A stretch of DNA of 64,000 nt from Rhizophagus irregularis (taxonomy: Eukaryota). Under the pieces are notes generated by a model, which ran no database searches, was not told the DNA's origin, and saw only the letters and a list, made by a program, of their open reading frames with translations. The translations under genes and the position numbers were made by a program. The DNA is taken from assembly GCF_026210795.1 (NCBI RefSeq), contig NC_089430.1, positions 2,108,001 to 2,172,000 of the forward strand, in the 5' to 3' direction. Shown piece after piece: positions 8,938-64,000 of the stretch. Positions within the stretch are counted from its first letter, which is position 1, and each line of letters begins with the position of its first letter.

Positions 8938-9571
8938 TTTTTTTTTTTTTGAAAATTAGCAGAAATGTAACTTTTTAAAGAAAAAAGTAAAGGTTCAGAG
9001 TTGAAATAGAAGTTATATCTGAAAAAAAAATTATCTTATATATATATATATTATTTTAATAATTATTTGAAGTATGAATCATTATAATAATATGATTTAT
9101 TATTAATCATTAAATGCTTGTCATATAAACTTATTTAGTCAGTACAAACATTACATCATGAAGATTAATAATTACATATTCTTGTCTAGAAATAATTGAT
9201 CAGCTTTTATCTTTGAAAATTCTACTTTATTTTAAACCAATATTGATTTACTCTGTTGCAATACAATAAGTATTTCAATTAAACTTTTACACATTAAAAT
9301 TTATTAATAATGATAAAATTTTGATATTTAATAAAGTATAATAATTATAACCCATTATTTTTGCAAAAAACACATTGTAAGTATGTATTCTACTACTAAT
9401 TATATTATAACTATCTATAATTAAACATGTAAACATATGAATATATGATATATGACGTAACTCTTAGTTAAGTCACGTCATAGACATAACTAAGATGCAA
9501 TAATTGTAACGTATAAAAATTGATCACGTATCTACTCTTCTTCAGAATGAAAACTAGAAAAATGTTTGTAT

Positions 9572-13470: not shown

Positions 13471-14780
13471 AAAATTAATATTCAAGTAGAATCAACCCGC
13501 CTGAACAACTTTCAATTAATAAATGAAGTTGATTTCATTTGTCCAAAGTAGATATATTACGCTCTAAATTAAAAAAACAGAAAAGAGAGTTAATATCATT
13601 AAGAAAAATGCAATTTTCTTTAAGCACTACACCTACATTCATGAAAATTAATATTCAAGTGGTTTCAACCCACCTGAACAATTTTTAATTAATAAATGAA
13701 GTTGATTTTATTTGTCCAAAGTAAAGATATTACGCTCTAAATTAAAAAAAAAACAGAAAAGAGAGTTAATATCATTAAGAAAATGCAATTTTCTCTAAGT
13801 ACTACACCTACATTCATGAAAATTAATATTCAAGTAGAATCAACCCACCTGAACAACATTCAATTAATAAATAAAGTTGATTTCATTTGTCCAAAGTGGA
13901 TATATTACGCTCTAAATTAAAAAAACAGAAAAGATAGAGAGTTAATATCATCAAGAAAAATGCAATCTTCTCTAAGCACTACACCTATATTCATGAAAAT
14001 TAATATTCAAGTAGAATCAACCCACCTGAACAACTTTCAATTAATAAATGAAGTTGATTTTATTTGTCCAAAGTGGAGATATTACGCTCTAAATTAAAAA
14101 AAAAACAGAAAAGAGAGTTAATATCATCAAGAAAAATGCAATCTTCTCTAAGCACTACACCTATGTTCGTGAAAATTAATATTCAAGCAGAATCAACCCA
14201 CCTGAACAACTTTCAATTAATAAATGAAGTTGATTTCATTTGTCCAAAGTGGAGATATTACGCTCTAATTAAAAAAAAACAGAAAAGAGAGTTAATATCA
14301 TCAAGAAAAATGCAATCTTCTCTAAGCACTACACCTATATTCATGAAAATTAATATTCAAGAAGAATCAACCCACCTGAAAAACTTTCAATTAATAAATG
14401 AAGTTGATTTCATTTGTCCAAAGTGGAGATATTATGCTCTAAATTAAAAAAAACAGAAAAGAGAGTTAATATCATCAAGAAAAATGCAATCTTCTCTAAG
14501 CACTACACCTATATTCATGAAAATTAATATTCAAGTAGAATCAACCTGCCTGAACAACATTCAATTAATAAATGAAGTTGATTTCATTTGTCCAAAGTGG
14601 AGATATTACGCTCTAAATTAAAAAAAAACAGAAAAGAGAGTTAATATCATCAAGAAAAATGCAATCTTCCCTAAGCACTACATCTACATTCATGAAAATT
14701 AATATTCAAGTGCTTTTAACCCGCCTGAACAACTTTCAATTAATAAATAAAGTTGATTTCATTTGTCCAAAGTGGAGATT
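13471..14780. repeat. Tandem array, unit about 175 bp, about 7.5 copies
   Basis: Unit aaaattaatattcaagtagaatcaacccacctgaac...ccaaagtggagatattacgctc...cactacacctatattcatg recurs near 13471, 13643, 13819, 13996, 14172, 14346, 14520, 14695. Confidence 0.95.
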
Positions 14781-22235: not shown

Positions 22236-24610
22236 CTAATGGTGAGATTTTTTGGATTTTTTATTCAATTTATAATTCCAAGCATTATACCAAAGATGTT
22301 GGTTTGGTACCATTGGAATATCTCCTTTAACTTTCAATGTATTGATCCAATTTTTAAGTGGTGTCTCACCATTATGTTTTAAAGTTGGTTTCAAATAATC
22401 CAATACATATTTAAATAATAAATCACCAGTAAGATCAGGGATTTCAAGTAAACTAGCAACATAATCAGCTGATTTAGCTTCAACACATCTTGATTTCCAA
22501 ACATCTTGTCCTACTCCCCAACTACTACCACTACTTGCGTCAATTGCAAGTACAAATGTATTCTTAGAGGTAAGATTTAAAAATTTTGAACAGTAACTTT
22601 CATAATAAGGATGAATGTTCAATGGATCTATAAATGAAAAATTAGACAAATTTCTGAAATAAAAATTGAAATGTGGTTTATGATTAGCATCAATTTATTG
22701 TAAAAATAATATAATTATTCTTGATAAATAGAAAGCATACCTTTTTTTATTATTTTCATCAACACTTAAATTAAATAATTGTTTAAATACTAAGTAAGTA
22801 TAAATAAATAAAATACATAAAATAAAAAAATAATTTATTAATAAATTCTACCTTAAGATTTCCATGTCATTAGTAGGTAAGATTACAACAGATGCTGTCC
22901 AATCAGCAGATGGAGTGCAAACTTCCTCAGTGATAGATATACACACAGTTGTAATAATAGCTGTTACTGATATGTCATCATTTACAGGAGAAGTAATCTT
23001 AATTCCAGTTCTTTCAATTTCAACTTCAGAACCACGATTATCAATCTCAAATTCATCAAATGAAGAAATTGTTTTGGTATATGGACGAATAGACTCAAAA
23101 ATAGCTTGAGTTTCTGGATCAAGTAATATTATATCTGGCTTTTTTTGTTTTATAGGAAATTTCTCAATTATATTATTAGCAATTGATAATAAATCTTTAT
23201 CAAGGTTTGAAAGTCGAGGATAATTATCAATTGCAAATTTACGATACCAGCCTTTAGTTAATGTAGTACAGATCCTAACAAGTGCCGATTTATAAGAATT
23301 TTCTTGATTATTGGAGATCATTGGAATAAGATATCTTTCAAGTGCAATAGCCATTGCTTCTTCTTTAACACAATTAATTTTTGTTTGATAGTCAAGTTTT
23401 TCAAAAAGTGATTTTTTTATCCACGCTTTAGACTATATTTTAATTATTTAATTAAGCAATTAGTTTTTGAATAAAATTTTAATTAAAACACAATAATCTT
23501 TATTAAGTTCCTTAAACTTTATACCTGGTCATCCTTTAAGCCTTGGTAAATCGGATGATCGCCATATTTAACGAGTTCATGTAAATCATCATGAGGAACA
23601 CGTGTTTGTACAAAAAGATTATCTTCATTTTCTAAGAAATCTTCATTGGACATATTTAAATTGATATGTGCACCTGGATTACCTCGTATAATTTCAGTTT
23701 CTTTAATACGAGTTTTCAACATAAGTTCAATTAATTCATCACGTTGTGGACTACATAGTGGTTGAATTGGTGAAACTTTATTATAATCTAATAAAATTCT
23801 CAACCAATGTAAATCTGAGATATTTTTATAAAAATCTTCTGGCCAATAAATATGAGATGTTTTCAAAGCTTCAAGGATTTTCAATGGAGCAACAATACAT
23901 AAATAATTTGACAATAATGGAAGTATTGTTTTATCTTCAATATTACGACATAATTCTAAAATCATTAGAGCACTTATTTTTGGTTTAGGATCATCAAACA
24001 TTTCAAATTCAATTTTATTGATTTCATCATCATCTTGTGTATTGCCCTTATTATCATCATCCTTATTATTTTCAGAATTTTCAGAATCATCATCATTATT
24101 ATTTTCAGAATTCTCAGAATCATCATCAAAATTATATCTCTTAAAATAACGTCTGTAACGTCTGTAATATTGATCATCATCCTTATCACTTTCATCTTCA
24201 TCATCACTCTCTTCTTTATTCAAACTCATAATTAATTTCATGTTCCTGAGATCCACTTTCTCAGAGACAAGTTCAATATCAAAACTAATAGATTTTTCAT
24301 CTGTAGATTGATCAATATACTCTCCAACAAGTTTTAGACCACCTCCTGGATAATGAATTAATTTTATTTTTCTAAAAGTTGCAATAGATTCTTCAACTTT
24401 ATTAATAAATAAAGTTGTTTGTGAAGGAGTTGCCACCAAATCCCAATCATTAGGTTCACGGAAAGAAGAATTATGCCATTTTGTAGCACGTGACCCAATA
24501 AGAACAGGATAACCTATAAGAGGAGTGTTATCTTCATTCTTGGCAATATTATTTAAAATAGTTAATATTTTTTTACAATTATCAGCAAGGATTATTTGAG
24601 GGTTACTCAT
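22236..24610 (-). CDS. Uncharacterised protein with Pol-beta-like nucleotidyltransferase motif, copy B (about 702 aa, intact)
   Basis: Exons 24610-23525, 23432-22852, 22764-22741 (24 nt), 22653-22236 join in frame. Motifs LIGSRA, EPNDWDL, FDIE, LKTSHIYW, HDDLHELV, IALERYLIP, ICTTLTKGW. Confidence 0.85.
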
Positions 24611-27600
24611 TGTTTTTTTTTTTTTGAAGAAAAAGTAAATTTTGAGAAAAAGTAAAATTTGTAGTGATTTAAAATAAAGGAAAAACTGAAGTTGTTAGAC
24701 CTTGAAAAAAAAAATAAGATTATGAAATATATAAAAAAATTTAGATTGATAATCGATGACTTGTAATATGCAATTAATTTGATTTTAATCTCTCATAATA
24801 GTCATATTGATAAGATTTTAATCATGCCATATTTGGATGCAATCAGTCTAAATTGTACAAGTGAAACATAACTAATTCAGTCATACTTGAGATAATTTTT
24901 GTCATGGTATTAGATTCTAACCAAAAATGTAGAAGTTTATAATAATAAAATTTTGATTTGAAACAAGTTATCAGTACTTTATTTTTTTTTTCATAGTATT
25001 TTATTGAACATATTTATATATTATATGGTAGAAAAAAATTAAAATTACTCCATAATGATTAAATAATTGTATGAAAAATGAGATTAGCATAAATATGTCG
25101 TAATATTTCTTTAAGCAGGAAAGAGAATAATACATGAAGATAATATTGAAGATCCCAATTGATGCAATTGATGGATGTTCTCACTTGCTTTAAAATTTTT
25201 TCTTGTTAATTGTTAATTTATATTCTATTTAATTGAGACAATCAGTACGATGTTTACATTGTCGATAATTAAGGGGCAAGAAAACTAAAATTTAGTCACA
25301 TCTAGTGTCTTTAAAAGTATTATAGTCACGATTCACGAAATAGGTAATTAAGCAATAATAAGTAAAGTTTATTGGATTTTGGAAATCAAGACAATTGTTC
25401 GCAACTATAATTTTATATATACAATAAAAAATGATTTCGTACAGTAATTTTATAATATACACTTTTTATATGAAAATTTATATGATAAAAAAATATACCT
25501 AATATATTAAAGAATTTTTTTTTATTTTGCAATCTCATTTATTCTTTATTTTATTTATCTCAGTTACTTATCATATAACTTCTTCCCTTACCTTAATCTC
25601 TTTCCTTCCCCTAATTAAAGTAGTTAATCCCTGAATCCTGATTATTTCCCAACATTTTCCCTTACATTAATTCCTAACCCTTACCCAGTTCTTTTCCTGG
25701 TTTATACTTCCTTATGTTCATTGTCTAATAACTTCCCTATACCTTACACTAATCCTCTTCCCTTACCCCTATTCTTATACTTTACCCTAATCTCTTACCT
25801 TGTGGTTATGGTATAATGGTGCGATGACTGCGACGTGTGATATGGTGGTTGTGGAGCAGTGGTGAATGTGGTATAATTTTACGTGCGAGTTAGAAAATAG
25901 GCTCTTACTTTTAGTAAGCTCGTTGTTATATTAGACGTTCACGTTAATATAGGATACGAGATTGAAAAGTTTTTATGGTTCTACAAAAAGCTTAACTTAA
26001 AAAAAAAAATTGTAACTTTAAATAAATTTAAGTAAATCAAAATTATAAATGAAGTTAAAGTATGGGATGTTAAGATTTTATAATGGTTTGGGATAAGGAC
26101 GCCAGGTACCAGCATGCTGCGATAGGAGCCATGGGATGGTACGCTACGGCAAGATGCTATGAACAATTTTATGGGTAAACCATGGTTCACTTTTAAAAAA
26201 GCCCCTTACGGACCTTATGAAGGACCGTATCACTTTATAGTATGTATGATGTCAGATGTGAATTTTTCAGTACTTTGTCATTATATGTGTGATGAGACTT
26301 TTCAATTTCTTAGTATATTATTTCATCATTTGTTGCTATCATGTTAACACTAAAAATTAATTACTGTTATTTGTTCAGTCGATTAAGATATTTTTATGAG
26401 ACATCCAATATTGAAATCAGTATTAGTTGCACGTCACTGACCGAACTATAACTGATGAAGTTATCAGTCTTTGACCATTTAATACATACTATATCTTAAA
26501 TCAATAAAAAGTATAATTTGAAGTAATTAATACCCAATAAAAAATTTATTAATTCAAAATAAAAAAAAATATTATATAATTCGACATTTTTAAATCAAAC
26601 CAAATTTAAATTTTGTTTTGTTCGTTATTATAGTAAAATATAATCTATCCAATACTTGTTAAAAAAAGTCATTAAAAGATTTCCGATTTACGATAAAAAA
26701 TATCATAATTAATATTATTAATATAATTTTGACGTATTTGAACTTTTACAATATCTTGGAAGAATTTATTCTTTTTTATTATCCATTTCCTTTTCAACTG
26801 ATATGTAAAACGCAATCATATGAAAAAAGAGTAAGAGTTTCTCTTAATTACATGTAAAAAAAATTATTTTTAATCATTACGTTACAGTATAATAAAAAAT
26901 TACACTTACAAATGTTGTATTATAACAGTGTTAGTATAAAAAGTTTCATTTTCAAAAGAAAAATTGAGCGTATTTACAATTTTGCCGGTATACGTTATTA
27001 GTCAAATAATAGAAAGTTAAACTACCGTTTAATTTATAAATAAAAATACATTGTATTTGAATGAGAATTTTCAAGAATTAAGTTTTCAAAAAAAAAAAAA
27101 TAATAAAATTTTGTAGATTTAGGAAGCTTTATAAGAACAACTTGAACAATATTTGATTATATTTAATTGGTTTAATTTATTTTTATTATTTGCGAGTTTT
27201 TAAATCAATACAAAATTTAAATTTTCCTTTTAAGTATTAAAATTATTATCAGCAGAATTTTGGCATAGTATGTGGGTAGTGGAATAATTTTTTTGTGCGT
27301 TTTATTTCTTTATTGCAAAGACTTAGAATTAAATGTCAAATATTTTTAAACTTGCATATTCGAACTAGATAAATACATAAATATATAAAAATATAATCAT
27401 TGTGATATATCCAATTTTTCTTGTTAACATGCATGAAATTCTATTATTCACTTATCAGCATTACATTCTATCTCAAACCTTCGTTCATTATATCAACTTT
27501 ATGGAGGTTATAATCATATTAAAAGAACAACCTGATCTTGTTTCATAGTTGATTGCTAATTCAAGTTAATTAAGTTAATTGTAATCATATACTCCATACC

Positions 27601-38652: not shown

Positions 38653-41600
38653 ATGGAAGGTTCTTTAGCTAAAAGTGCAAATAAATAGATAAAAGCAAAA
38701 GGATTAAAATCTAGTTCTATACCAATTTCATTTATTCCTTTCAATAAAAACAAGGATAACTGTGATTGTGGAAATAAATATTCTAAAACACTTTTATTTA
38801 ACCAAAAATATTGTAAAAAGTGCATATCTGGATATATTAAGCTTATACTAAATAATAATGACAATATTACTCCCTCAATAGATCAATTACATAACTTCTA
38901 TTTATTTAAATGGGTCATAATCGATGTTATCATATATACGGATAATAGTATTGTATGTAATAATCATGAAGATAAAGATTTTGATAAATACGAAATTCAA
39001 GAATTTCGAGGATGGTGTGAAAATTGCTCCAAAATTTTATATTTTAAACAAGTAATTAGTGATTACTTACCTTCTCCATCTCATATTGATGATAATTGTA
39101 AATTATGTGGAAAAGTAATCGACCAACATTTTCTTTTATGTTCAGATTGTTATCAAATTTCTTGTAGATGGGTAAAATCAACTTTAGCTGAAAATACTGA
39201 AAATTCTGTTCTAATTATTTATTTACCTTGGTGGGATACACACGATCAATGCATAATTTGTAGTTCACAACTAAATTTTACTTCGGATTATCAAAAATGG
39301 TGTTTATATTGCTGTATGTTTTATATTGGATGTAGATATTGTTTAACAACAAATATTATTTTCGGAATTACGAATTAATCTCAATGTAAAAAATGTGAAA
39401 GAACATCATTTATCAAAATCAATGTAACCGATATCAAAGAATCCTTTTTAACTCGGAATCATATTAATCAGATTTCCAATTATATAAGTAACATTGATAA
39501 AAATTCTAATCCATTAGAAGTGTATAATTTTATTAAAGGTCTTAATTGCTTCCCTTTAAAATCATCAACAGATCTAATTTCACATTCTCAAATTACAAAT
39601 TTGGAGAATAATGATGGGAATTCTGCTATGCCAATTATGTTTATTCCTTTTATTAATGAAGAAGAAACCTGTTATTATTGTTATTATTGTAAAAGGAAAT
39701 ATTCTCAAACACTATTATTTGAACAAAAATATTGCAAATATTGCTTATTCATTTATATTAAATATTCAGAAAATAACTATAATATAGATGTATGTGTAAG
39801 TACAAAAAATACTCAATGTGATAAACATGAACCTAGAACCTTGGGTTTTTGTGCAGAAAATATTCAAGAATGGTGTAGTTATTGTTCTGAAATTTCATTC
39901 TTTAGACAAATAGTTACAAAATATAAGTTTGACATAATGAATTATGATCAAAAAATTATTATAAATGATCATTCCCAATTTTTTTTTGAATCATTAGAAT
40001 CATCTTTAATTAAAAAGCCTATTGCAATCCTTTATTTACCATGGTGGGATGCTTATTATCAATGTTTAGCTTGTAATTCACAATTAGAACTTAAATCTAA
40101 TTGTCAAAAATGGTGTTCAAATTGCTTTATAATTTATACTGGATGTAGATATTGCTTGACAACAAATATCATTTTTGGAATTACAAGTCAATCTCAATGT
40201 AAAAAATGTAAAAGATTATTATTTACTAATATTAGTATCAGTGGAAATGATACAATGATACTATAGATAAATTTTTGTGTATTACAAAATTAATTATTGA
40301 TTATGATTTTCAAATTGATGATTATATTAAAAATACCAATCCATTAAAAATATATAGTTATATTAAAGATAAGTTGAATTCTTCCCCTTCAAAATTAAAA
40401 ATTGATTGGATTCCATATTCACAAATTAAAAATTTAGAAAAAATAGCAGAAGGTGGATTTGGTATTATTTATAAAGCTAAAATTGATGGAAAAGTTGTTG
40501 CTGTAAAAGGATTTTTAAATTCTCAAGATCCTAGTAACGATTTTTTAAATGAAGTAAGTAAAAATTATAGTATATTTTTGGAATGTTTTATTATATTAAT
40601 AATTTTTAATTTTAATATTTCTGTATTTTAGTTAAAATCACTATATCAATGTTATGATGAGAAATTTGAATGTATTATTAGATGTCATGGAATTACAAAA
40701 AATCCTTTAACAAATGAATTTATGTTTATAATGAAATTTGCAAATGGAGGAAATCTATATAATTATTTACATGATAATTTTACAAATATTACATGGAAGG
40801 AAAAATTATATATTTTATGGAGAATTTCAGATGGGTACATTATTTATAATTTTAATATCAATATTATGAAGATATTAACTAAAATTTTTTTAATTAGGTT
40901 ACAAACTATTCATGAAAAAGACTTCATACATCGAGATTTTCATAGTGGAAATATCTTGATTGAAATAATTGAAAATGGTTCATGTAAAGTAGACCAATAT
41001 CTGATTGGAGATTTAGGATTATCACAACCTGCAAATAATACTTCATCAAATAATGAAATATATGGTGTAATACCTTATATTGCACCAGAAGTATTTAAAG
41101 GTGCTAAATTTTCAAAAGCATCTGATATTTATAGTATGGGTATGATTATGTGGGAGTTAACGACTGGTTGTAAACCTTTTGCTAATATAGAACATGATAG
41201 TAATTTTATTTATGAAATTATTGATGGAAAAAGACCTGAAATTACGGATGATACTCCTGAAGATTTTGCTAATTTAATGAGAAAATGTTGGAATTCTGAT
41301 CCTAAAAAGAGACCTTTGGCAAAAAAAATTTGCGAAACTGTTAATCATTGGTTAACAACAAAAGATGATGATCATATTTTTAATCAAGCTGAAGAGATAC
41401 GATTAGAATTAATAAAATCAAAATCACTTGGTCCCGAATTCAGTAAACCTCGTCATTCGCATGCAATTTATACAAGTAGACCATTAAATTCTTTGATCTC
41501 CAAATCTTCTGTTATTTCTTCAATGACTTCATTTAATATGAAAACAAAGTATGTACTCTATTTCTTTTACGTTTATAATATCGTTAGCATTAACAATATT

Positions 41601-42109
41601 AGCAATAATTATTTAATTATCTTAGATAATAAGCTTGAGACATTAATTGAAGAATCAAATACTGATATAAATGGTAATTCTTAACAAGTATAATTAATAT
41701 CAAAAGAACTTAATTAATTATTTACCTTCTTGTTTCTTTTAGAATACATTACAAAAGAATATGAGCTAGATATAGATGATACTCAAAGGTACGAATAAAA
41801 AGAATAAAAATTTTGCTAATATTGATGATATTAATTTGAATTATTATATTTTAACCAAATAGAGATTCTATTATTCAAAATTCAAACATTCAGTATTGCT
41901 CAAATTCATTAAATTCAGAAACTAATCCTTTAAGAAAGCGAAATATTGAAGAATTAAATGTTGAAATTCAAGATAATGGTAAGTAAGCTTTTATTTATAC
42001 AATGCAAAAGCAATTATTATATTATATTAATTTTTATTTTTTATTTAAAAAAAAAATAGGAAAGCATATTAAAATAAGTGACGAAATAGACAAAGAAATT
42101 AAAGAATAG
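38653..42109 (+). pseudogene. TKL kinase with duplicated Cys-rich N-terminal domain, disrupted
   Basis: In-frame TAG 38686 and TAA 39376. 8-bp tandem duplication aatgatac (40246-40261) shifts the frame. Kinase motifs GGFG, VAVK, HRDFHSGN, DLG, APE intact. 3' exons parallel those of 1-1147. Confidence 0.8.
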
Positions 42110-43306
42110 TAGATTTATTCTAGTAAAACCAATTACTGTATTTGACTTATTTATTTCATAGTTTTATTTCAATATTTTTATCTTTTTTATTTATTATACT
42201 AGTTTTTTTATCGTGTATTTTCTATTTTGTATGCAATATGAAAAATTTTTGAAAAACAAATATTATACGATTTCTACGTATATGATAATACTGTATATGA
42301 AAGCTATACTTACAACGAGAAGCCCGAGTTTAGGATTCTTATCCTAGACCTGAGAGGTTAGACACCTTATTCTGGATCTTGTGGTGGCACAGCTGATCGT
42401 TATCAGTCTCATTTATTTTTTTTTATTGCTTAATATCATTTTGTTTCACAAAAAATCAACGTTCTTTCTCTTTCTTAGTTCTTGCACTTTGATCTATAAT
42501 CTTCTCTATTTAGTTTTTACATAAATTATAGTTCTTTTTTTTCATACTGAACAAATTTTTTATTACCATTATTTTCGTAATAATGTGCATTAAAACAATA
42601 AAAAAATTTATCAAAATTTTTAAATCTCAGCTTTCTTGCCAATAATTTATTTGACCTTTTGGCGAATATATGATGACTTTAAAAAGCATGTAATACATTG
42701 TTTTCAAAAAAAAAAAAGTTTCTTCAAATGAAATTGTAACTTGAAAACCATCAATTTATTTGTATAGAGAAGTGAGGGAATACATAAGGATATTATTCGA
42801 AAACAACGCTTATAGCCTTATATCATTATATATATTATACCTCAGGTGTCGATTTGTTTCAGTGTGATTACTGACGTGCGTCAGATATATGTAAGGTATA
42901 ATTAGACATTAAATATTCCAGCCTTAAATTTTTATCACATAAAAAAATGTAATCAGAAACATTTCATTCGAAATTATTTTTAAACTACACTTATAAATAA
43001 AATGTTAAAAAAAGTGTTTATTACCGTGTTAGCTGTCAGGCGTCAATTTACATTTGACAAGGCCCCTTAAATCAGCCAAAAAAAAATTACTATTAGTTAT
43101 ACACATTTTTTTCAGGGCCGGAAGGGACGTTAGCTATCACCTGGCGTGGAAACATACAAAATAAATAATAAACACAAATGCGCAGCAATTAAAATCTTTT
43201 TTCCCTTTATAGAAATTTACAGTTACATGATCATCGTAAAATAATATAAATAGGGCTTCGACTTGAAATTTTAAATTTTAAATTTTGCTGCTTTATTATT
43301 TCAACA

Positions 43307-44757
43307 ATGTCTTCAAAATTTTTGGCAGAGTTATCTAGCGATTATGAAAAATTTTTTGAGACAGAAATTGGATATGATGTTATTATTTATGTCGGAGAAG
43401 ATCAAAATGTCAAAGAAATTCATGCTCATTCAAATATTTTATGTGCTAGATCTCAATATTTTCGTTCTGAATTTTCTAACGAACGGGTCGAGAAAAAGGA
43501 TGGAAAATTTATTTTTAGAAAGCCAAACATTTCACCACAATTATTTAATATCATTCTTAGGTAATATACTATGTAAATAATTTAACATTTTTTATTTAAT
43601 AAAATATTTCTAACTATTAATTTTATTAGGTTTATTTATTGTGGAAATATTGAATTGAAGAATTTACAAGGTCCTGATGTATTAAAGTTGTTGATGGTAG
43701 TGGATGAACTATATATCAATTCGTTAGTTATTTATATTCAAGAATTTTTGATTGAACATCAAACCGAATTTTTAAATCAGAGCCCAATCGAAATCTTTGA
43801 AATTATTTATTAACATGAAAAGTTTACAGATTTATGGAATTTTTGTCTTAAAAAAGTTTGTAATGAACCTAAAATTTTATTTGATTCTGAAAAATTTATT
43901 CAATTAAAAGCTTTTTTATTGGAATTATTATTAAAAAGGGAAGACTTAAATATGGATGAAATTGAAATTTGGGAGTATTTATTAAAATGGAGTTTTGCTC
44001 AACAAAATATACAGAAAAATCCAACAGAATGGAATAAAGATGATATTACAAGGATTGAGAGAGAATTGCACAGATTTATTCCTTTTATTCAATTTTATGA
44101 TATTGAACCTACAGATTTCTTTTACAAAGTTTATTGTTACAAGGAAATCTTACCACCAAATTTAATTCATGATCTCTTAGAATATCATATAGTTCCTAAT
44201 GTAAAACCTAAAGTTAATTTACCTAATTCAAGAAAAATAAATTCAACCTTGATTGAATCGAAACACATTCCTCTTTTTTCTTCATGGATTGGTAGAAAAG
44301 AATCCTCCTATTATGATAGAAAAAGTTGTCCTTATGATTTTAAATTATTATATCGTTCAAGTCGGGATGGAATTGACACTAAAACTTTTCATAATAATTG
44401 TGACAATAAAGGAGCAACTATTTGGGTAGCAAAAATTAAAGACTCAACGCAATTAATTGGAGGATATAATCCACTTGATTGGAATGGAAACTCGGGTTAT
44501 AAAGCTGCGAATGATAGTTTTTTATTTAATTTTACAAATGGAAGAAATATTTCCACTGCAAAATTAGGGTATGTTAATAAGACCAATGTAGCTGTTTATT
44601 GTGAATATAATTATGGACCAAGTATGGGTAATTTATTTTGTAAAAATAATAGGTGGTATACTAATTCTTCTGATAATGGAGATCGTTATCCTAGAATAGG
44701 AATTCCAGAAAGTTTGATGTAGAAGATTATGAAGTATTTCAATTAATTAAAAAGTAA
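43307..44757 (+). pseudogene. BTB/POZ-BACK-TLDc protein, disrupted
   Basis: BTB (DVIIYVG...AHSNIL..RS.YF) and TLDc (FKLLYRSSRDG, FH..CD.KG.T, IGGYNP). Intron 43561-43629. In-frame TAA at 43811. Frameshift near 44712 puts terminal DYEVFQ out of frame. Confidence 0.85.
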
Positions 44758-50089: not shown

Positions 50090-53000
50090 ATGGGTCAATG
50101 TATTAGTAAAGGTAAACATATAGCATTAATATAAAATATAAATTAAAATTATTCAAATTTTTAAAACAACCTTGAAATATAGTAATAGCTTTCAGTAATG
50201 TTAAAGAAATTGAAGAAAATGGCACTGAAGAATTTGAGGAAAGTGGCACCAAGGAATCTAATATCTGTAAATAATTTAATTACTAGCTGGTCTTATATAA
50301 TATGAATAATAATGAATAATAATGGAATTGCTTATTATCTTTGTTATATTGCAAATAAATAAATAATTTATAAATGATTAATAATACTATAGTTTGTAAG
50401 TTAAATCTTTAGTTCTTTATTTATTCATTTTACATGATATAATATTTAAATAACTAATTTCTTTGTTTAATTAATGATTAATTATACTACAGCTGGTAAG
50501 TTACAGTATTTAAAAATTATTTGATATTTTATATAATTCAACTAATTATATTTTCTAATTAAATAACTAGATTGTAAGTAATATATTTAATTTATTAATT
50601 TATATTTATATCTAACTAATTAGTATAATTAATAATACTACAGGGTGTAAGTTACATAATATTTGTATTTCTATTACTTACATATTATTTAAGCTAAAAA
50701 ATTCCTCATTTAAAAAATTATTTCCTTTAGATCGTAAGTTATAATTTATTTATTATTACTTATTTTATATAGTATTTACATATAATTTGAACTAATCATA
50801 TTTAAAAATTATTTAATAATATAGGGTGTAAGTTAATTATTTAATTCTATTATCACATGTTTATATAATATTTACATATAATTTACACTAACTGAATTTT
50901 TATTTATAAAATTATTTTGTAATTTCTTTTAGATTGTAAGTTATAAGCTTATTTAATTTTATTATTACTTATTCACGTTTAATTTAAACTAATTAAATTC
51001 TTTATTTAAAATTATTTAATAATATAGTTCGTAAGTTATTTATCTAATTCTTTATTTATATAATATTTACATATACTAAATTTTGTAATTTCTTTTAGAT
51101 CGTAAGTTATACTTATTTAATTCCATTATAATTTATTCATATAATATTTACATATAATTTAAACTAATAAATTCTTTATTTAAAAATTATTTAATAATAT
51201 AGGGTGTAAGTATTTTTATAATTCTATTATCACTTATTTGTATAATGTTATATATAATTTATACTAACAATTAAAAAATTATTTTGTAATTCCTATTAGA
51301 TTGTGAGTTATAAGTTATTTATTTAATTCTATTTTTACTATTTTATATAATATTTACATATAAATTTAAAAAATTATTTTGTAATTTCCTTTAGATCGTA
51401 AGTTATGTTATTTATTTAATTTATTATTACTTATTTGCATATAATTTTAACTAAATTCTTTATTTAAAACATTATTTAATAATATATATAGGGAGTAAGT
51501 TATTTATTTAATTCTTTTAACACTTATTTATATAATATTTACATATAATTTAAACACCTAAATTTTTTATTTAAAAAATTATTTTGTAATTTCTTTTAGT
51601 TGGTAAGTTATAAGTGATTTATTTAATTCTATTATTACTTATTGTTATAATTTTACATGTAATTTAAACTAACTAAATTTTTTATTTAAATAGATTGTAA
51701 GTTATAAGTTATTTATTATTACTTACTGTTAAAATATTACATGTAATTTGAACTAACTAAATTCTTTATTTATAAAATTATTTTGTAATTTTTCTTTTAG
51801 ATGGTAAGTTATGAGTTATTTATTTAATTCTATTATAACTTATTTATATAATGTTTACATATAATTCAATCTAACTAAATTCTTTATTTAAAAAATTATC
51901 TTTAGATGGTAAGTTATAAACTATTTATTTAATTTTATTATTACCATATAATTAAAACAATTCTTTATTTAAAAATTAATTAATAATATAGGGAGTAAGT
52001 TATTTATTTATACTATTATTATTTATTTATATATTATTTACATAATATTTAAACTAATTTAATTCCTTATGTAAAAAATTATTTTGTAATTTCTTTTAGA
52101 TCGTAAGTTATAAATAATTTATTTTATTTATTTAATATTTTCATATAATTAAAACTAAGTTCTTTATTAAAAAATTATTTAATAATATAGGATGTAAGTT
52201 ATTTATTTAATTCTATTATTACTTATTTATATAATATTCACATATAATTTAAATTAACTATATTCTGTATTTAAAAAATTATTTAATAACATAGGGAGTA
52301 GGTTTTTTATTCAATTCTATTATTACTTATCTATACAATATTTATATATAATTTAAACTAACTAAATTCTTTATCTAATAATACAATAGGGGGTAAATTA
52401 AATATTTAATTCTAGTAGTATTACTTATTTAAATAATATTTATATATAATATAAACTAACTATATTCTTTACTTAAAAAATTATTTTGTAATTTCCTTTA
52501 GATCGTAAGTTATAAGTTATTTATTTAATTCTATTATATAATGTTTACATATAATTTACATCAATCAAATTCTTTATTTGCAAAACTATTTAATAATATA
52601 GGGTGTAAGTTATTTATTTAATTCTATCATTACTTATTTATAATATTTATATAACTAAATTCTTCATTTAAAAAATTATTTTGTAATTTCTATTAGATCG
52701 TAAGTTATAAATTATTTATTTAATTCTAATTTTACTATTTTATATAATATTTACATATAATTTAAACTAACTAAATTCTTTATTCAAAAAATTATTTTAT
52801 AATTTCCTTTAGATCGTAAGTTATGAGTTATTTATTTAGTTTTATTATTACTTATTTATATTTACATATAGTAATTCAAACTGACTAATAAATTATTTAA
52901 TAATATAGGGTGTAAGTTATTTAATTAATTCTATTATCACTTATTTATATAATATTCACATATAATTTAAACAACTAAATTCTTTATATAAAAATTATTT

Positions 53001-56000
53001 TGTGGTTTCTTTTAGTTGGTAAGTATAAGTTATTTATTTAATTCTATTTATCTATTATTACTTATTTGTATAATATTTACATATAATTTATATCATTTAA
53101 ACTAACTAAATTCTTTATTTATAAATTATTTTGTAATTTCTTTTAGATGGTAAATTATTAATTATTTATTTAGTTCTATTATTTATATATAATTTAAACA
53201 ATTAAATCTTTATTTAAAATATTTAAAAATTATTTAATAATATAGGGAGTAAGTTATTTACTTAATTTTTATTATTATTTATTTATTTAATATTTACATA
53301 TAATTAGAACTAATTAAGTTCTTTATTTAAAAAATTATTTTGTTAATTCCTTCTTAGATTGTAAGTTATAAGTTATTTATTTAATTCTATTTTTATTTAT
53401 TTATATAATATTTACATATAATTTAAACTAATTAAATTCTTTATTTAAAAATTATTTTGTAATTTTTTTTAGATGGCAAGTTATAAATAATTTATTTTAT
53501 TTATATAATATTTTCATATAATTAAAACTAAGTTCTTTACTAAAAAATTATTTAATAATATAGGATGTAAGTTATTATTTAATTCTAGTATTACTTATTT
53601 ATATAATATTCACATATAATTTAAACTAACTAAATTCTTTATTTAAAAAATTATTTTGTAATTTATTTTAGTTGGTGAGTTATAAGTTATTTATTCAATC
53701 TATTATTACTTATTGTTATATTTACACATAATTTAAACTAACTAAATTCTTTATTTAAAACACTATTTTGTAATTTCTTTTAGATTGTAAGTTATAAATT
53801 ATTTAATTCTATTATTACTCATTTATATAATATTTACATATTATTTAAACTAACTAAATTCAAATTCTTTATTTAAAAATTGGTTTGTAATATCTTTTAG
53901 ATCGTAAGCTTTAATTTATTTATTTAATTCTATTATTACTTAATTATATAATACTTACATATGATAAAACAATTCTTTATTTAAAAATTATTTAATAATA
54001 TAGGGAGTAAGTTATTTATTTAATTCTATTATTTGTATAATCTTTACATATAATTAAACTAATTAAATTCTTTATTTAAACAATTATTTAACAACATAGA
54101 GAGTAGGTTTCTTATTTAATTCTATTATTACTTATTTATATAATATTTAAATTAAACTATTTTTTTAAAGTTTAAACTAAACTAAATTATTTATTTAAAA
54201 ATTATTTTGCAATTTTTTTAGATCGTAAGTAATAAGTTATTTATTTAATTCTATTTTTATTATTTTATATAATATTTACATATAATTTAAACTAATTAAA
54301 TTCTTTAATTTCTTTTAGATCGTAAGTTATAAATTATTTATTTAGTTCTGCTATTTATTTATATATAATTTAAACTAATTATATTCTTTATTTAAAAAAT
54401 TATTTAATAATATAGAGTGTAAGTTATTTATTATTACCTATTCATGTAATATTTACATTTAGTTTAAATTAACTAAATTCTTTATTTAAATAATAATTTT
54501 GTAATTTCTTTTAGATGGTAAGTTACAAATGATCTATTTAATTCTATTATTACTTATTTATATAATATTACATATAATTTAAACTAATTAAATTCTTTAT
54601 TAAAAAAATTATTTTGTAATTTCTTTTAGATCGTAAGTTTATTCTGTTGTTACATATTTGTAATATTTACATATAATTTAAACTAACTAAATTCTTTATT
54701 TAAAAAATTATAAATATTATTTAATAATATAGCTTGTAAGTTATTTGTTGTTTCTAATTGTTATATATTATATATAATATTTATTTATTAACTGAATTCT
54801 TTCATTTAAAAATTTCTGTCACTTTAGTTGGTAAGTTATGAAATATAGTTTTTTTATTATTATATATATTTATACAAAAACTGATGACATATATTATATT
54901 AAATTCCAATTTAAATTAGAGTAAGTGTTAATTTTAATCTTTAATTTATTATAAACTTTAATATAATTTTAATTGATTAAATTTATAGATTTGGAAAAAG
55001 TGGAAATACAATTATAGATGAATTTATTTTTGAAAAAAAGTTAAAATGGATTCCTTATAATAAATTTAAAAATATTGAATATCTTGATAAAGGAGGATTT
55101 AGTACTATATACAAAGCTACTTGGTTAAATAATAATAATGATAAAGAAATAATTCTTAAATGTCATGATAATTTAAATGATAATTTAAATGAATTTTTAA
55201 ATGAAGTATGATATTATATTATTTATTTCTTTTAATTTAATTTACAATTTATTTATTAATTAATATGTTATTATTTTATAGTGGAAATATCATGAAAGCT
55301 GTTTAGATTCATATGATATTATTTATTTTTATGGATTTACAAAAAAACCGGATACTTTGAAATATATGGTAGTAATGGATTATGCAAACAAAGGTAATTT
55401 AAGAGGAAACCTAACAAGAATAATCAAAAATAATTGGAATCAAAAGTTATATATGTTGTATGAAATTATTTCTGGGCTTATTAATATACATAAACAAAAT
55501 CTTATTCATTGTGATCTTCATGATGGAAATATTTTAAATCATAATGAGAGTAAAATTTATATTAGTGATTTAGGATTATGCAAACCTATAAAATCATTTT
55601 TGAAAAAGTATAGTATTTATGGTGTTGTACCATTTATGGCACCTGAAATTTTAAGAGGCAAACCTTATACCCCAGCTAGTGATATATACAGTTTTTCTAT
55701 GATTATGTGGGAATTTACATCTGGGATACCACCATTTAATAATAGAGCACATGGTATTCAACTTAGTTTAGATATTTGTGAAGGTGAACGTCCTGAAATT
55801 ATTGAAAATACTCCACAATGTTATGTAGATTTGATGAAAAGATGTTGGGATGAAAATCCATTAAAAAGGCCATCTTCTGAAATAGTTTTAAATATTATTA
55901 AAGAATGGATATTTCTTCCTTATGACAGGAAAATTGAAGATATTAATGAAGAATTAAAATGCAATATTATGGAATTCATAAATGCACCAATAGGGCATAA

Positions 56001-56175
56001 CAATCTTACTACTGAATCTCATCCACAGGCTTGTTATACAGGTCGCTTACTTGATTTTACTAGTAAAAAATTGAATGAAATTCTTGAAAGTAAAAACTCA
56101 CAAGCTAGTATAAAATTGAATGAAATGTCATTAAGTGAAGATTTGAATGAGTATAAAATTGAAGATTTGAAGTAA
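50090..56175 (+). CDS. Predicted N-myristoylated TKL kinase with a microexon-encoded N-terminal segment (50 coding exons, 450 aa)
   Basis: Exon 1 50090-50111 (MGQCISK), exon 2 50183-50266, 45 x 3-nt exons 50393-54830, 1-nt exon 54920, then exons 54989-55205 and 55282-56175. Total 1353 nt with no internal stop. Kinase motifs KWIPY, GGFSTIY, IILK, HCDLHDGN, DLG, APE. Confidence 0.85.
50393..54920 (+). repeat. Tandem array of about 100-bp intron+microexon units
   Basis: 46 occurrences of YAG-(NNN or N)-G(T/C)RRRY about every 70-130 nt. Shared intron body gtaagttat...ctaa(c/a)taaattctttatttaaaaaatta. Confidence 0.95.
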
Positions 56176-57988
56176 TTAGGTATGCAATATAGTATATACA
56201 AAAATTAATTTTGAAAATTGTTTATATGAAATTAATTTCACTTATTTAATTATTTAGATATTAAAACAGATGAAAATTTACTTGTGTTTTAAAAAAGTTT
56301 TATAGTTTTTTATAAGTGATATTTGATATTATGCATTTAACAAAAATTGTTCTTTATTTTATTCCTTTAGATTTATTATTTATTCATTAAAGGCTAGAGT
56401 AGTAAAATTCTTAGTTTGTAATTTAAATAATTCCTTTTTTTTATATTTTATCAAAATATTAAATATATGTATTCTCTTAGAATTATTTAAACACTAAGGC
56501 TATCATAGTAGTAAATATTTTACAAATTAATTAGTTTGTAATTTAAATAAATCTTTTTTTAATTATTTTAAAAATATAAATTATCATTTATCAGAATGAT
56601 TAAACATACAAACAATTTTCAATATATAAAATTAAAATAGATAATTTGTAAATTTCTTATGTTTATTTTCAAGACTGATGATAATATTAATTAAAATTTC
56701 AGTTAGTACCAAAATTTCTAAATCAGGTAAAAAATTTTACAGATCGTTAACATAAAAATCAGACGTTTAGCTCATGGGTTGAACCGGTTGATTTCAATCA
56801 CTGACTAAAATAAAATTTAAATATAAAAAAAATTCTAAAACGACAAAAAATTGGCTAAAATAGTAAAATGTATTTTCTAAATAAAATCTTTTAACTTTAG
56901 TTCTTTACATATAGAAATTAATAACTTATAAAATTTTCTTTAAAGTTCCAGATACAAACTATGTTATATAATTTTTATGCTCCAATTCTACATAATCTAA
57001 TTCCTTTAAATACAACTTATGATGAAAACTACTGTAAATCCAGTGCGAAAAAAGATAAAATAAAATGTGCATTTTTATTGGCTGGAGATCATGTGGCGGA
57101 CAGAGTCAGGTGATCATTTTTTTTTTGTAACAGACAAACTTACATTATGGTCAAAATCTGACATAAAACAAATAAATAAATTAAGGTCAAAATCGGTTCT
57201 ATACTTGTTTTATTATATCCTTTAAATATGATGAGAATAAATATTATATTGCAGAAATGAATAATTACGTATACAAAAAATGTTTCAGGAGTTTTTTTTT
57301 TGGCAAATAGGGTTAGAAAATTTCACAAAATACAGAATAATTTTCATTGTAAATTATTCCCTATATTGATGTTATCAAAGTTTAAATAAAATTACTAAAG
57401 TATACGTTCATATTTTATAATCAATGACCGTATCTTATTTTAATTCAAAGGTCCTATTTTAACTTTAAATAAATAATCCTTTACAATACATATTTGAATC
57501 ATGATATAAAATTTTCGGGTTTATGAACTCGAGGAATACTATTTAATTTTTTGTTTTTCGTCATAAAGGTTATATCTATCTAAATTGCACGTGTTGTGCG
57601 ATCTGTGGACGTGAACTTTATTGTTGTATATCTTTGGTATTTGGTATGTGCACTTTATAAATATCTGTACCACTGTGCAGAAAATACTCATTAAAGAGAG
57701 TTTAAAAAACAAATTATATATCATGCTAAGAATACACACGCTTTACAATAGTATACTGCTAATTGCTACATAATTAACGAATAGTAATAATTTATTAAAC
57801 AAACATTAGTATTTACGATTGCAAATTTATGTATTCAACAAATATAATATTTCACCCAGTATATATTGAATGAGATTTTTGTCCTCGATATTTAAATTAA
57901 ATTAAACTAAATTTAAACAAAATCCGTATAAATATACAGGATATTTTATATTTTTCCAAATCACTAAATATAACTGAAAATAATATTA

Positions 57989-58993: not shown

Positions 58994-60486
58994 TTAATAA
59001 TATTCGTAATTGACCGATCGACTGCGAATTTTTTTTAAAAAAGATTTTTACTGTAATAAAATTATTTCTGATTAATAGTTCAACGCCCGTTTGATTATCA
59101 AGCTGAAATGGTTATCTGTTAAAAAAGAAAAATTAATTTCGTAAAAAATCACTTTGACCGGATCCTTAAATTGTTTAGCTGAAAAGAATTTTTAATAAAT
59201 ATACACGTACAGTATTTTCATAGAAACAACTTTTTAAAAAATAATGTATTTTAATTAACAGCAGGTTCATACATAGAAAATAGCTAAGATAAGAGTAGCA
59301 GGTCAAAAGAAATAATTTATAGTTCAAGTTTTATGATAAAATTGGATAAAAAAAATTTGTAAATTTTTTACGCATTTTTTAAGTAATTATATTTTGATTT
59401 TAATGACCGTAACCGTAATTGTCAGATTTTTTTTAAAAAAAATGAATTGAAAGAATTAAAATTTCTATTCTTAATTTTTTTTTTTTTACTAAACAATTTT
59501 TGGTTATACGCTATTATTTCTTTACAATTATGATTCACCTATTTTAATTTCTTATGCGAAACTGCGAATATTTTATATTTTGAAACATTTTTTTTTGTCC
59601 TATAAGTCACGTTTTATTTAATAAACGACGATGAGATTTTATATAATAAAAAAAATTCAAACTTAAAAGGTTAATAAAAAGAATAAACAAAAAAATAAAA
59701 AAAAGTGATTATTGTGAAAAGTAACTTAAACATAAATGGAAATCATAAACACGATCCATACGAACCAAGTTTTTTCTTCGACTTTTCATTAAGAAAATGA
59801 AAGAAATTTTTTCAAATAAAAAATGAAAATTAAAAACGTGCAAATGAATAATAATAACATGGCTATATCGTTTAATAAATTTTACCAAGAATTAAAAAGG
59901 ATTGAATATATTATTTATTCATATATCCTGAAACAAATAATGAAAGAGATCATAGGTATTAAAATATTTACAACATGTATCATTTAAAAAGTGTTCATAA
60001 CCTACTCATATTTTTCAGAATTTCTTTTAGTTAGTGTAAATTGGTGACACGTAGTTTATTTTTAAATGTAAAGTATGACAGTGTCAATGACTTACTAAAA
60101 TGGTAATCATTTATACATTGAAGTAACAAATCACCGTTTGCCAAGAATTTTGTGTAATACAACTTACCGTTACTGCGCTCAGTGCGCTGAAATGCTAAAT
60201 TAAAAATTTTCTTTCTTTTTTTTTTTTGTTATGGGAAGAGCTCGAAATTTGTGGAGGACCAGGTTCTATACCTTATTTCAACGCCGAATGCATAATTCAA
60301 TCGTATTACGCAAATCCAACAATGTAAGTCACATGACATGCATATCACGTGATAATTTACATTTTCTATTTATATAACCTCGGTCCGAAACAATATCTTT
60401 TCCACTTTTTAACCCGCACAACTTGTTTTAGCTTTTTTTATATCCCCTCAATTTGAATTTGTTTATAAATTACAAAAGTTCTGCTC

Positions 60487-63400
60487 ATGGATTCTTTTGG
60501 GCTAATTAAGCCATCAGATGCTAGCGAGATATGTGAAAAATGTTATTACATATGTTATGCAATGCGATTTCAACAAAATTTCAAAAATTGGACTAGTGGT
60601 AATGATAATATTGATAAATTTATTCAAGATACTCAGTTATCAGCTCATGAAGATGTAAGGGAAGTATTGGAATGGATACCTTATGATAGGTTGTATAATA
60701 TTAAATATATTGCAAAAGATGAGTTTGGTAAAGGTAAAGTATATAGAGCAAATTGGATTGATGGATATATAAGTGATTATGAAGACGATGAAAGTTTGGA
60801 TAGTGAAAGCAAAAATTGGATAAGAGAAGGATGCAATATGTTTGTGAATTTGAAGAGTTTAAATACTCCAAATATTCTTACATTGGAATTTATAAATAAG
60901 GTATATATAAGTTTATGTTAATTACATAACAAAATTATGAATATTTTATTTTTCTAAATATTATTACATTTGTAGATTAAAATTGAACATGAATTTTATG
61001 GAATAACTTTGGATTCAGAAACAAGAAATTATATGGTGGTTTTGAATAATAAATGTAAAGAGTGTAATGAAATGTGTAATTCAATATACTTTCAACAAAA
61101 TTTTGAAAATTGGACTAGTGGTAATGATAATATTGATAAATTTATTCAAAATACACAGTTATTAGCTCATAAAGATGTAAGAGTAGCATTAGAATGGATA
61201 CCTTATGATAGATTTCATGATATTAAATATATTGCAAAAGATGAAGTATATAGGGCAAATTGGATTGATGGAAATATATATTATTATTACTATGGTACTA
61301 GTAAAAGTTGGGATAATAAAAATCAAAATTGGATAAGAAAAGGATGCAATATGTTTGTGAATTTGAAGAGTTTAAACACTCCAAATATTCTTACGTTAGA
61401 ATTTATAAATAAGGTATAAGTTTAAGTTAATTACATAACAAAATTATAAATATTTTATTTTTCTAATATATTATTACATTTGTAGATTAAAATTGAACAT
61501 GAATTTTATGGAATAACTTGGGATTCAAAAACAAAAAATTATATAATGGTTTTGAATAATAAATGTAACAAGTGTAATAAAATGTGTAATTCAATATACT
61601 TTCAACAAAATTTTGAAAATTGGACTAGTGGTAATGATAATATCGATAAATCTATTCAAAATACACAGTTATTAGCTCATATAGATGTAAGAGTAGCATT
61701 AGAATGGATACCTTATGAAAGATTGTATAATATTAAATATATTTCAAAAGATGAGTTTGGTAAAATATATAGAGCAAATTGGACTGATGGATATATTTGG
61801 TATTGGGTTAATAAAAATCAAAATTGGATAAGAGAAGGATGCAATATGTTTGTGAATTTGAAGAGTTTAAATACTCCAAATATTCTTACATTAGAATTTA
61901 TAAATAAGGTATAAGTTTCAGTTAATTAGTACATAACAAACTTATAAATATTTTATTTTTCTAATATATTATTACATTTGTAGATTAAAATTGAACATGA
62001 ATTTTATGGAATAACTTGGGATTCAGAAATAAAAAATTATATGATGGTTTTGAATAATAAATGTAAAGAGTGTAATAAAATGTGTAATTCAATATACTTT
62101 CGACAAAATTTTGAAAATTGGACTAGTAGTAATGATAATATCGATAAATCTATTCAAAATACACAGTTATTAGCTCATAAAGATGTAAGAATAGCATTAG
62201 AATGGATACCTTATGATAGATTGTATAATATTAAATATATTTCAAAAGATGAGTTTGGTAAAATATATAGAGCAAATTGGACTGATGGATATATAAGATA
62301 TGATAAAAGTTATGAAAGTTGGAATAATAATAATCAAAATTGGATAAGAGAAGGATGCAATATGTTTGTGAATTTGAAGAGTTTAAATACTCCAAATATT
62401 CTTACATTAGAATTTATAAATAAGGTATAAGTTAATTACATAACAAAATTATAAATATTTTATTTTCTAATATATTATTACATTTGTAGATTAAAATTGA
62501 ACATGAATTTTATGGTATAACTTGGGATTCAGAAATAAAAAATTATATGATGGTTTTGAATAATAAATGTAAAGAGTGTAATAAAATATGTAATTCAATG
62601 TACTTTCAACAAAATTTTGAAAATTGGACTAGTGGTAATGATAATATCGATAAATCTATTCAAAATACACAGTTATTAGCTCATAAGGATGTAAGATTAG
62701 CATTAGAATGGATACCTTATAATAAATTGTATAATATAAAATATATTTCAAAAGATGAGTTTGGTAAAATATATAGAGCAAATTGGACTGATGGATATAT
62801 TTGGTATTGGGTTAATAAAAATCCAAATTGGATAAGAGAAGGATGCAATATGTTTGTGAATTTGAAGAGTCTAAATACTCAAAATATTCTTACATTGGAA
62901 TTTATAAATAAGGTATAAGTTTAAGTTAATTTGTACATAACAAAATTATAAATATTTTATTTTTTTAATATATTATTACATTTGTAGATTAAAATTGAAC
63001 ATGAATTTTATGGAATAACTTGGGATTCAGAAATAAAAAATTATATGATGGTTTTGAATAATAAATGTAAAGAGTGTAATAAAATGTGTAATTCAATATA
63101 CTTTCAACAAAATTTTGAAAATTGGACTAGTGGTAATGATAATATCGATAAATCTATTCAAAATACACAGCTATTAGCTCATAAAGATGTAAGAGTAACA
63201 TTAGAATGGATACCTTATGATAGATTGTATAATATTAAATATATTTCAAAAGATGAGTTTGGTAAAATATATAGAGCAAATTGGACTGATGGATATATAA
63301 GATATTATGAAAGTTATGGAAGTTATCAAAGTTGGAATAATAAAAATCAAAATTGGATAAGAGAAGGATGCAATATGTTTGTGAATTTGAAGAGTTTAAA

Positions 63401-64000
63401 TACTCCAAATATTCTTACATTGGAATTTATAAATAAGGTATAAGTTAATTACATAACAAAATTATAAATATTTTATTTTCTAATATATTATTACATTTGT
63501 AGATTAAAATTGAACATGAATTTTATGGAATAACTTGGGATTCAGAAATAAAAAATTATATGATGGTTTTGAATAATAAATGTAAAGAGTGTAATAAAAT
63601 GTGTAATTCAATGTACTTTCAACAAAATTTTGAAAATTGGACTAGTGGTAATGATAATATCGATAAATCTATTCAAAATACACAGTTATTAGCTCATGAA
63701 GAGGTAAGTGTAGCATTAGAATGGATACCTTATAATAGATTGTATAATATTAAATATATTTCAAAAGATGAGTTTGGTAAAATATATAGAGCAAATTGGA
63801 CTGATGGATATATAATATATGATAAAAGTTATGAAAGTTGGAATAATAAAAATCAAAATTGGATAAGAGAAGGATGCAATATGTTTGTGAAATTGAAGAG
63901 TTTAAATACTCCAAATATTCTTACATTGGAATTTATAAATAAGGTATGAGTTTAAGTTAATTACATAACAAAATTATAAATATTTTATTTTTCTAATATA
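60487..64000 (+). CDS. Kinase-associated protein built from tandem symmetric exons, each a CxxC...WTSGN...EWIPY kinase N-lobe-like module (continues past window)
   Basis: Exons 60487-60900, 60976-61413, 61486-61908, 61984-62424, 62490-62912, 62988-63437, 63503-63943. All lengths are multiples of 3, introns are phase 0 and nearly identical, and there are no stops. Confidence 0.85.

Follow-up and report, generated by a model that had tools for sequence, protein, structure and literature searches.

A likely array of 45 three-base exons and a one-base exon in a kinase gene of Rhizophagus irregularis

Can 4.5 kb of AT-rich repeat DNA in front of a protein kinase domain be coding? The question is raised by a gene in a stretch of 64,000 nucleotides (nt) from Rhizophagus irregularis (GCF_026210795.1, contig NC_089430.1, positions 2,108,001–2,172,000 of the forward strand), which we call the window and to whose positions all coordinates below refer. 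An initial annotation of this DNA had proposed that the repeat is a chain of 45 consecutive three-base exons, spliced into the message of a kinase. Rebuilding the exon model gave the following features:

50090..50111, plus strand: coding exon 1 (22 nt), read from the sequence, with the start codon and a Gly2-Cys4-Ser6-Lys7 N-terminus, ending in phase 1
50183..50266, plus strand: exon 2 (84 nt), acidic and Glu-rich, followed by a phase-1 donor (GTAAAT) at 50267
50267..54919, plus strand: chain of 46 short introns (68–128 nt) and 45 three-base exons, the first at 50393–50395 and the last at 54828–54830
54920, plus strand: one-base exon (A) between TAG and GTAAGT, which brings the phase-1 frame into register with the kinase exon (phase 2)
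54989..55205, plus strand: kinase N-lobe exon, with the Gly-rich loop, the Lys of an ILKC motif and the helix-C Glu
55282..56175, plus strand: last coding exon, with the remaining kinase domain (HCD catalytic loop, DLG, APE) and a C-terminal tail to the stop

The full model has 50 exons and 49 introns (48 GT-AG and one GC-AG) and encodes, in 1353 nt, a protein of 450 residues with a single terminal stop. All 45 triplets were found in the sequence with the starts and letters that the initial annotation had listed. Its claim that every unit keeps both splice sites holds, with a minor amendment to one donor: the acceptors are YAG in 45/45 cases (43 TAG, 2 CAG), and the donor is GT in 44 units and GC in the remaining one (53473, GCAAGT); a G at donor position +5 is present in 43/45. 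All triplet exons are exactly 3 nt long, while the 47 introns between exon 2 and the kinase exon vary between 68 and 128 nt, the range given earlier. The proposed joining in phase 1 after exon 2 does yield a 450-residue frame free of internal stops, and the array-encoded peptide predicted from it is identical to the corresponding segment of the rebuilt model. This model also supports the predicted insert of 136 nt (45 triplets and the single base) between exon 2 and the exon at 54989. The triplets lie in phase 1, each codon being made of the last base of one triplet and the first two bases of the following one, and the array writes 46 residues with Tyr (9), Arg (8), Asp (7), and Phe (5) as abundant types. 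The 45 triplets and the single base, each inside intact splice signals, are thus likely spliced in to write a 46-residue stretch at one residue per intron.

Such an array would pass as satellite DNA because it is AT-rich and is called as overlapping tandem repeats. The G+C content of the region is 12–13%, as against 17–32% in the other 1-kb bins of the window, and a tandem-repeat finder reported repeats of ≈100, ≈200, and ≈310 nt. Chance is not the explanation, since the array is the sole regularly spaced run (at least three) of AG-NNN-GT/GC sites on either strand of the window. It accounts for 45 of the 54 plus-strand sites, and the 9 sites on the minus strand of the window form no regular run.

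From the first ATG, the kinase frame is reachable only via the array. Joining exon 2 straight to 54989, with all microexons skipped, causes a frameshift and a stop at residue 45; skipping only the triplets, so that exon 2 meets the single base, gives a stop at residue 36; and omission of the single base shifts the frame. The N-lobe exon contains no Met at all, and a downstream start would therefore lose the ATP-binding lobe.

A search of sequencing runs gave none recorded as RNA that contained this stretch, the best-matching run having 0.51 of the words, and contigs of four runs guessed to be RNA were aligned to 54900–56200 at 85% likeness. The joint 55205–55282 (GT..AG) is bridged by three contigs of run X18, four of X19, and one of X20, with little depth over the intron, and these three runs probably behave as spliced RNA. 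Run X2, which covers the introns and lacks this joint, is likely to be DNA. In nineteen X18 contigs the fit ends at 54989, which is the exact exon border, and the contigs continue for a median of 91 letters beyond it (among the rows listed). The consensus of these loose ends agrees at 7/7 and 9/10 letters with a junction made of the final three triplets and the one-base exon. Rival models match fewer of the 10 letters: five for a model lacking the single base, four each for a 5-nt exon, the genomic intron, and exon 2 plus the single base, and three for exon 2 joined directly. By comparison, 17 of the 63990 positions in the window match the consensus at 9/10 letters, as do 0.4% of random three-triplet draws from the array. 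Two X19 contigs likewise have their first aligned letter at 54989, leaving 193 and 10 letters unplaced. The aligned contigs are mostly 85–95% alike to this copy, and only 35 of the 440 X18 records are at least 99% alike, most contigs coming from paralogs or other alleles. For the family, then, as represented by paralogs or other alleles, the RNA speaks for the single-base exon, for phase 1, and for inclusion of the last triplets. To this extent the proposed inclusion of the microexons is borne out, X18 contigs showing the one-base exon and the three triplets before it, but all 45 were not seen in one message.

The same contigs bear on combinatorial alternative splicing, in which each message would skip a different subset of triplets, giving a library of linker variants per gene. 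This is compatible with splicing of the array as modelled, with diversity arising per message rather than per allele, and we regard it as possible though rather unlikely. All 45 exons are frame-neutral, and only 52 of the 990 skip junctions among exon 2 and the triplets create stops, so that simulated messages remain open in 83% of cases at 90% inclusion per exon and in 55% at 50% inclusion. There is also a fungal precedent in the nank genes of Tuber, as reported by papers that cite the original work (PMC4986451; PMC13449251), and skipping of this kind has been reported for the micro-exon genes of schistosomes as well. The agreement among the X18 loose ends (0.58) would fit mixed isoforms, but mixed paralogs account for this low value equally well, and no isoform of this gene was found among the contigs aligned at 54900–56200. 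Moreover, the introns are short and the splice sites uniform and strong (donor GTAAGT in 38 of the 49 introns of the whole model), a skip to the single base from exon 2 or from any of the 16 T-ending triplets gives a stop, and exon skipping is generally low in fungi according to PMC6142364.

Have the splice signals been kept by selection or merely inherited with the repeat? The intron copies are ≈81% alike pairwise and differ by many indels. Since the MAFFT intron alignment misplaces the intron ends, splice-site conservation was taken from end-anchored counts. Within the intron bodies, the six consensus C columns are retained in 177/231 cells (77%) and the A/T columns in 2330/2544 (92%). At these body rates ≈22 units would be expected to keep all four splice letters (32 from the A/T rate alone), whereas 45/45 do. 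The nominal p-values for this excess (1e-7 to 1e-14) are overstated, the copies being related, and we read the excess as a strong hint of selection and not as an exact probability. As a check for circularity we looked for introns of double length; the array has none, and therefore no repeat copy has lost its sites. These figures speak to the alternative that the array is a satellite grown from a real intron-exon unit, recent enough to retain its splice signals, in a silent or dead copy that makes no full protein. No RNA of this copy was found across the array, the contigs aligned to 54900–56200 being mostly from less similar sequences, and error-free removal of 49 introns may be inefficient, both of which would suit a dead gene. 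Yet in spite of the divergence of the introns not one of the 45 units has lost a splice letter or changed its exon length, and the 450-codon frame and the kinase motifs are intact, which makes a dead copy improbable.

The array units can be divided by their acceptors into two cassette types (21 and 24 units) that differ in acceptor, triplet class, and donor context. With acceptor and donor classes set by consensus motifs of our own choosing, the two are linked across the exon (17, 2, 3, 20; p = 9e-7; 42 units classified), but a donor and the next acceptor are not linked across the intron (7, 13, 12, 10; p = 0.23). All 15 purine-purine triplets (GG, GA, and AG starts) stand behind one acceptor class (p = 2e-7). 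The linkage across the exon but not the intron means that the inherited unit is a half-intron, an exon, and a half-intron, and the array likely evolves by swapping exon-centred cassettes and not by intron insertion. No clear higher-order period was found among the array units, although units 19 and 32 of the 45 are near copies. The third triplet base, which becomes the first codon position and sets the residue, has a pairwise diversity of 0.62 and 0.65 in the two classes, while flanking intron sites scored at most 0.41. Selection for variety could be the cause, as could a small number of founder cassettes together with CpG decay.

Array introns homologous to each other would also result if a mobile intron of the introner type had inserted itself at every third base of an ordinary exon, and a title in the reference list of PMC6142364 indicates that introner-like elements are known in fungi. 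Such an element would carry its donor and acceptor together, however, and these are the sites found unlinked, the linked ones being those that flank an exon. The exon alphabet is furthermore as repetitive as the introns (22/45 triplets begin with AT and 11/45 with GG), as expected from duplication of whole units, and we consider mobile insertion very improbable.

The kinase exons are 45–82% identical to 92 listed proteins, of which 90 are named Rhizophagus (R. irregularis, R. diaphanus, R. clarus). In 78 homolog rows, the residues just before the N-lobe motif are Ser-Lys (16), Cys/Gly/Arg-Lys (9), and Leu-Glu (7). We infer that these endings arise where a gene predictor slides the donor four bases into GTAAGT or reads the intron up to the single base. 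Five Rhizophagus models (P0016, P0034, P0038, P0046, and P0062) have Gly/Ile/Leu/Met-rich stretches ending in Leu-Ser-Lys before the N-lobe exon, which probably are such triplets misread in phase 0. That gene predictors would miss the array is supported: in the public models, translation begins at the N-lobe exon, introns are read through, or the triplets are put in the wrong frame. A transcript-derived linker was not found in the protein searches (92 and 70 hits, with 150 of 829 matches listed), where the N-terminal query matched only itself.

Odd low-complexity N-terminal stretches were also noted in P0012, P0016, P0034, P0038, P0046, P0047, and P0062 and are likely arrays read in the wrong frame; such stretches could help to find further arrays in protein databases. 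A metagenome scan by the N-lobe motif gave two loci, L001 and L002. The first was rejected as a chance match lacking kinase context. The contig L002 has the same single base (AG-A-GTAAGT) and ends ≈50 nt upstream of it, too short for an array. Downstream of the stop of our gene, at ≈56370–56560 on the plus strand, lies a duplicated unit of ≈120 nt, each copy with TAG, three T, and a weak GTAATT; it is present twice in L002 too. These units could be untranslated mini-exons or chance.

The triplets could also be read as whole codons (phase 0), a five-base exon linking the resulting hydrophobic Gly/Ile/Leu/Met segment to the kinase, which is how several of the public models have it. This reading would give a stop-free and almost wholly hydrophobic or Gly stretch with the variable base at the wobble position, and would suit the Ser-Lys endings of the homologs, but it is hardly credible. 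The five-base model matches the X18 consensus at only 2/7 and 4/10 letters and stops at residue 82 in this gene; exon 2 offers a single phase-0 GT, in the poor context GTTAAA; and the window and L002 share the donor that follows the single base but not the one that would follow a five-base exon.

Several observations weigh against inclusion of the whole array and its residue-wise evolution. No contig of this copy was seen to cross the array, the aligned stretch starting at 54900 and the RNA support from sister genes being confined to the triplets after the first 42. The RNA nature of the runs is itself a guess, and the loose-end consensus, besides its low internal agreement, appears for one run of four among the rows listed and departs from this gene further upstream (10/14). 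A linker of the predicted kind precedes the N-lobe motif in 0/78 homolog rows, with one short ambiguous case (P0043). A strict branch-site pattern 15–55 nt from the acceptor is present in 29 of the 47 introns, and looser patterns in 34/47 and 39/47. The stop-free order of the triplets is weak evidence, as 15% of shuffled orders are also stop-free and stop avoidance is not significant. The diversity of the third base can be explained by founder cassettes and CpG decay (12 C-G and 16 T-G donors), and our comparison covers the copies within this single array of one strain.

On balance we think it probable that the 4.5-kb repeat consists of intron copies removed in succession, joining the 45 triplets and the single base into a linker between a likely membrane-anchoring N-terminus and the kinase, and that this linker changes residue by residue through cassette exchange. 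The short introns would be recognized by intron definition and would leave singly, since a spacing of three bases is too small for two spliceosomes, an argument that PMC4674806 makes for the one-base exon of Arabidopsis APC11. The resulting 46-residue linker, rich in Tyr, Arg, Asp, and Phe, would join an acidic and presumably lipid-anchored N-terminus to a non-RD kinase domain. The cassettes could then be shuffled by unequal crossover or gene conversion, the breaks falling within the intron bodies that the units share, and each exchange would add, remove, or replace one residue with the frame preserved.

The kinase domain appears intact judging from its motifs and Pfam match. The last exon matches PF07714 with E = 6.7e-33 and 114.5 bits (cut-off 23.1) and PF00069 with E = 4.9e-32 and 111.8 bits. 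The Gly-rich loop, the ATP-binding Lys, the helix-C Glu, the catalytic Asp and Asn, a DFG-like motif (DLG), and the APE motif could all be located. Of the 92 homologs, 62 show the catalytic-loop motif, and 54 of them have the same non-RD form (HCD) as this protein. Non-RD kinases are linked to immune receptors. The first 35 residues of the protein are acidic and on inspection, no signal-peptide predictor having been run, have no long hydrophobic core. N-termini similar to exon 1 are found in the homologs P0034, P0052, and P0069, and Glu-rich stretches homologous to exon 2 in P0010, P0019, P0021, P0033, P0034, P0040, and P0069. The Gly2-Cys4-Ser6-Lys7 N-terminus follows what we take to be a myristoylation/palmitoylation signal pattern.

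Is such a gene without precedent? The initial annotation believed that nothing like it had been described in fungi, which is wrong: codon-sized mini-exons are known from the immune-type nank (NACHT-ankyrin) genes of Tuber melanosporum (Iotti et al., 2012, as cited in PMC4986451 and PMC13449251). As far as the citing papers describe them, both cases concern a mycorrhiza-forming fungus, an expanded gene family, and tens of codon-sized tandem exons (45 here), with a proposed role as a source of protein diversity. Our gene differs in that the host protein is a kinase from a distant fungal lineage, and a Pfam scan showed only kinase-type families on the two large exons, the remaining 81 residues leaving no room for NACHT and ankyrin domains. 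To judge from these citing papers only, it also differs in having a terminal one-base exon that sets the frame, with codons split across exons. Alternative splicing has been reported for the Tuber genes, whereas here we see only mixed paralog contigs at the 3′ junction.

The initial annotation had also drawn a comparison with the micro-exon genes of Schistosoma, which stands as a likeness of design and not as membership. In both cases runs of very short, mostly frame-neutral exons have been overlooked by annotation. The Schistosoma genes have 10–20 exons of mostly 15 nt, introns of 0.1–5 kb, and a signal peptide, and their products are secreted and have no kinase domain (bioRxiv 10.1101/2023.06.21.545858). 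The present gene has instead 45 exons of 3 nt, homologous introns of only 68–128 nt, no signal peptide by inspection, and a fungal kinase as its product. For the one-base exon, the closest parallel is APC11 of Arabidopsis, which has a one-nucleotide exon and for which sequential intron removal was proposed (PMC4674806). There too a single A lies between canonical introns, is needed for the frame, and was missed by annotation. In that case, however, it is a lone exon in a conserved single gene, whereas the one-base exon of the present gene stands at the end of 45 triplets and is a recurrent feature of a large family.

The Rhizophagus kinase repertoire (PF07714/PF00069) has been put at 2,533 members (PMC10234402). 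Microexons are not mentioned in the passages of this long-read annotation paper on R. irregularis that deal with exons, introns, kinases, or splicing, though its supplements may bear on the matter. Arrays of this kind in kinases or in arbuscular mycorrhizal fungi did not turn up in the literature, in a search whose coverage mostly excluded subscription papers. New here is the exon-centred linkage of the cassettes. The truffle precedent makes our array a variant, yet it suggests convergence in two mycorrhizal lineages.

The truffle parallel, together with the link between non-RD kinases and immune receptors, leads us to suggest tentatively that the variable linker may be a recognition or partner-binding peptide of this non-RD kinase family, diversified between paralogs and strains.

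The rest of the window contains further kinase-like genes and repeats. Two of these genes lie on the plus strand at 79–765 and 38689–41684; the latter has long Cys-rich N-terminal frames in place of a microexon array and no periodic triplet run. A 498-nt tandem repeat (6.7 copies, 89% matches) occupies 60469–64000 on the plus strand and runs past the end of the window. Each copy has an open frame of ≈145 residues and then a gap that looks like an intron, the frame being similar to the stretch in front of Rhizophagus kinase domains; no Pfam match was found in the two copies scanned. Another tandem repeat of 174 nt (7.5 copies, 93% matches) is located at 13471–14779. Two similar multi-exon genes are found on the minus strand at 5802–8955 and 22236–24694, and the frame 23519–24694 of the second has DUF7275 and DUF7277 matches and a low-complexity insert rich in Asp, Tyr, Arg, and Asn in an ordinary exon. 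Finally, a TLDc domain gene (PF07534) lies at 43250–44722 on the plus strand, with an upstream frame that looks BTB-like by eye.

If the gene is spliced as modelled, its 46 consecutive exons of 3 and 1 nt would lie near the limit of the spliceosome and provide a natural test of sequential, intron-defined splicing. Satellite-like DNA in arbuscular mycorrhizal genomes would then be coding, and the N-termini of many kinases in the R. irregularis repertoire of ≈2,500 members would be missing or mis-framed in databases. The exon-centred linkage offers a testable route by which a genome could edit a peptide one residue at a time without a frameshift, and such editing bears on the purpose of the kinase expansion in these symbionts. 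A broader and more doubtful speculation is that arbuscular mycorrhizal fungi run a residue-level diversifier, in which copies of the repeated intron act as recombination spacers around each split codon, and crossover between them, possibly with exon skipping, rewrites a recognition peptide residue by residue in a large family of membrane-anchored non-RD kinases. The outcome would be a set of variable receptors that sense microbes or tell self from non-self and that every current gene model has missed.

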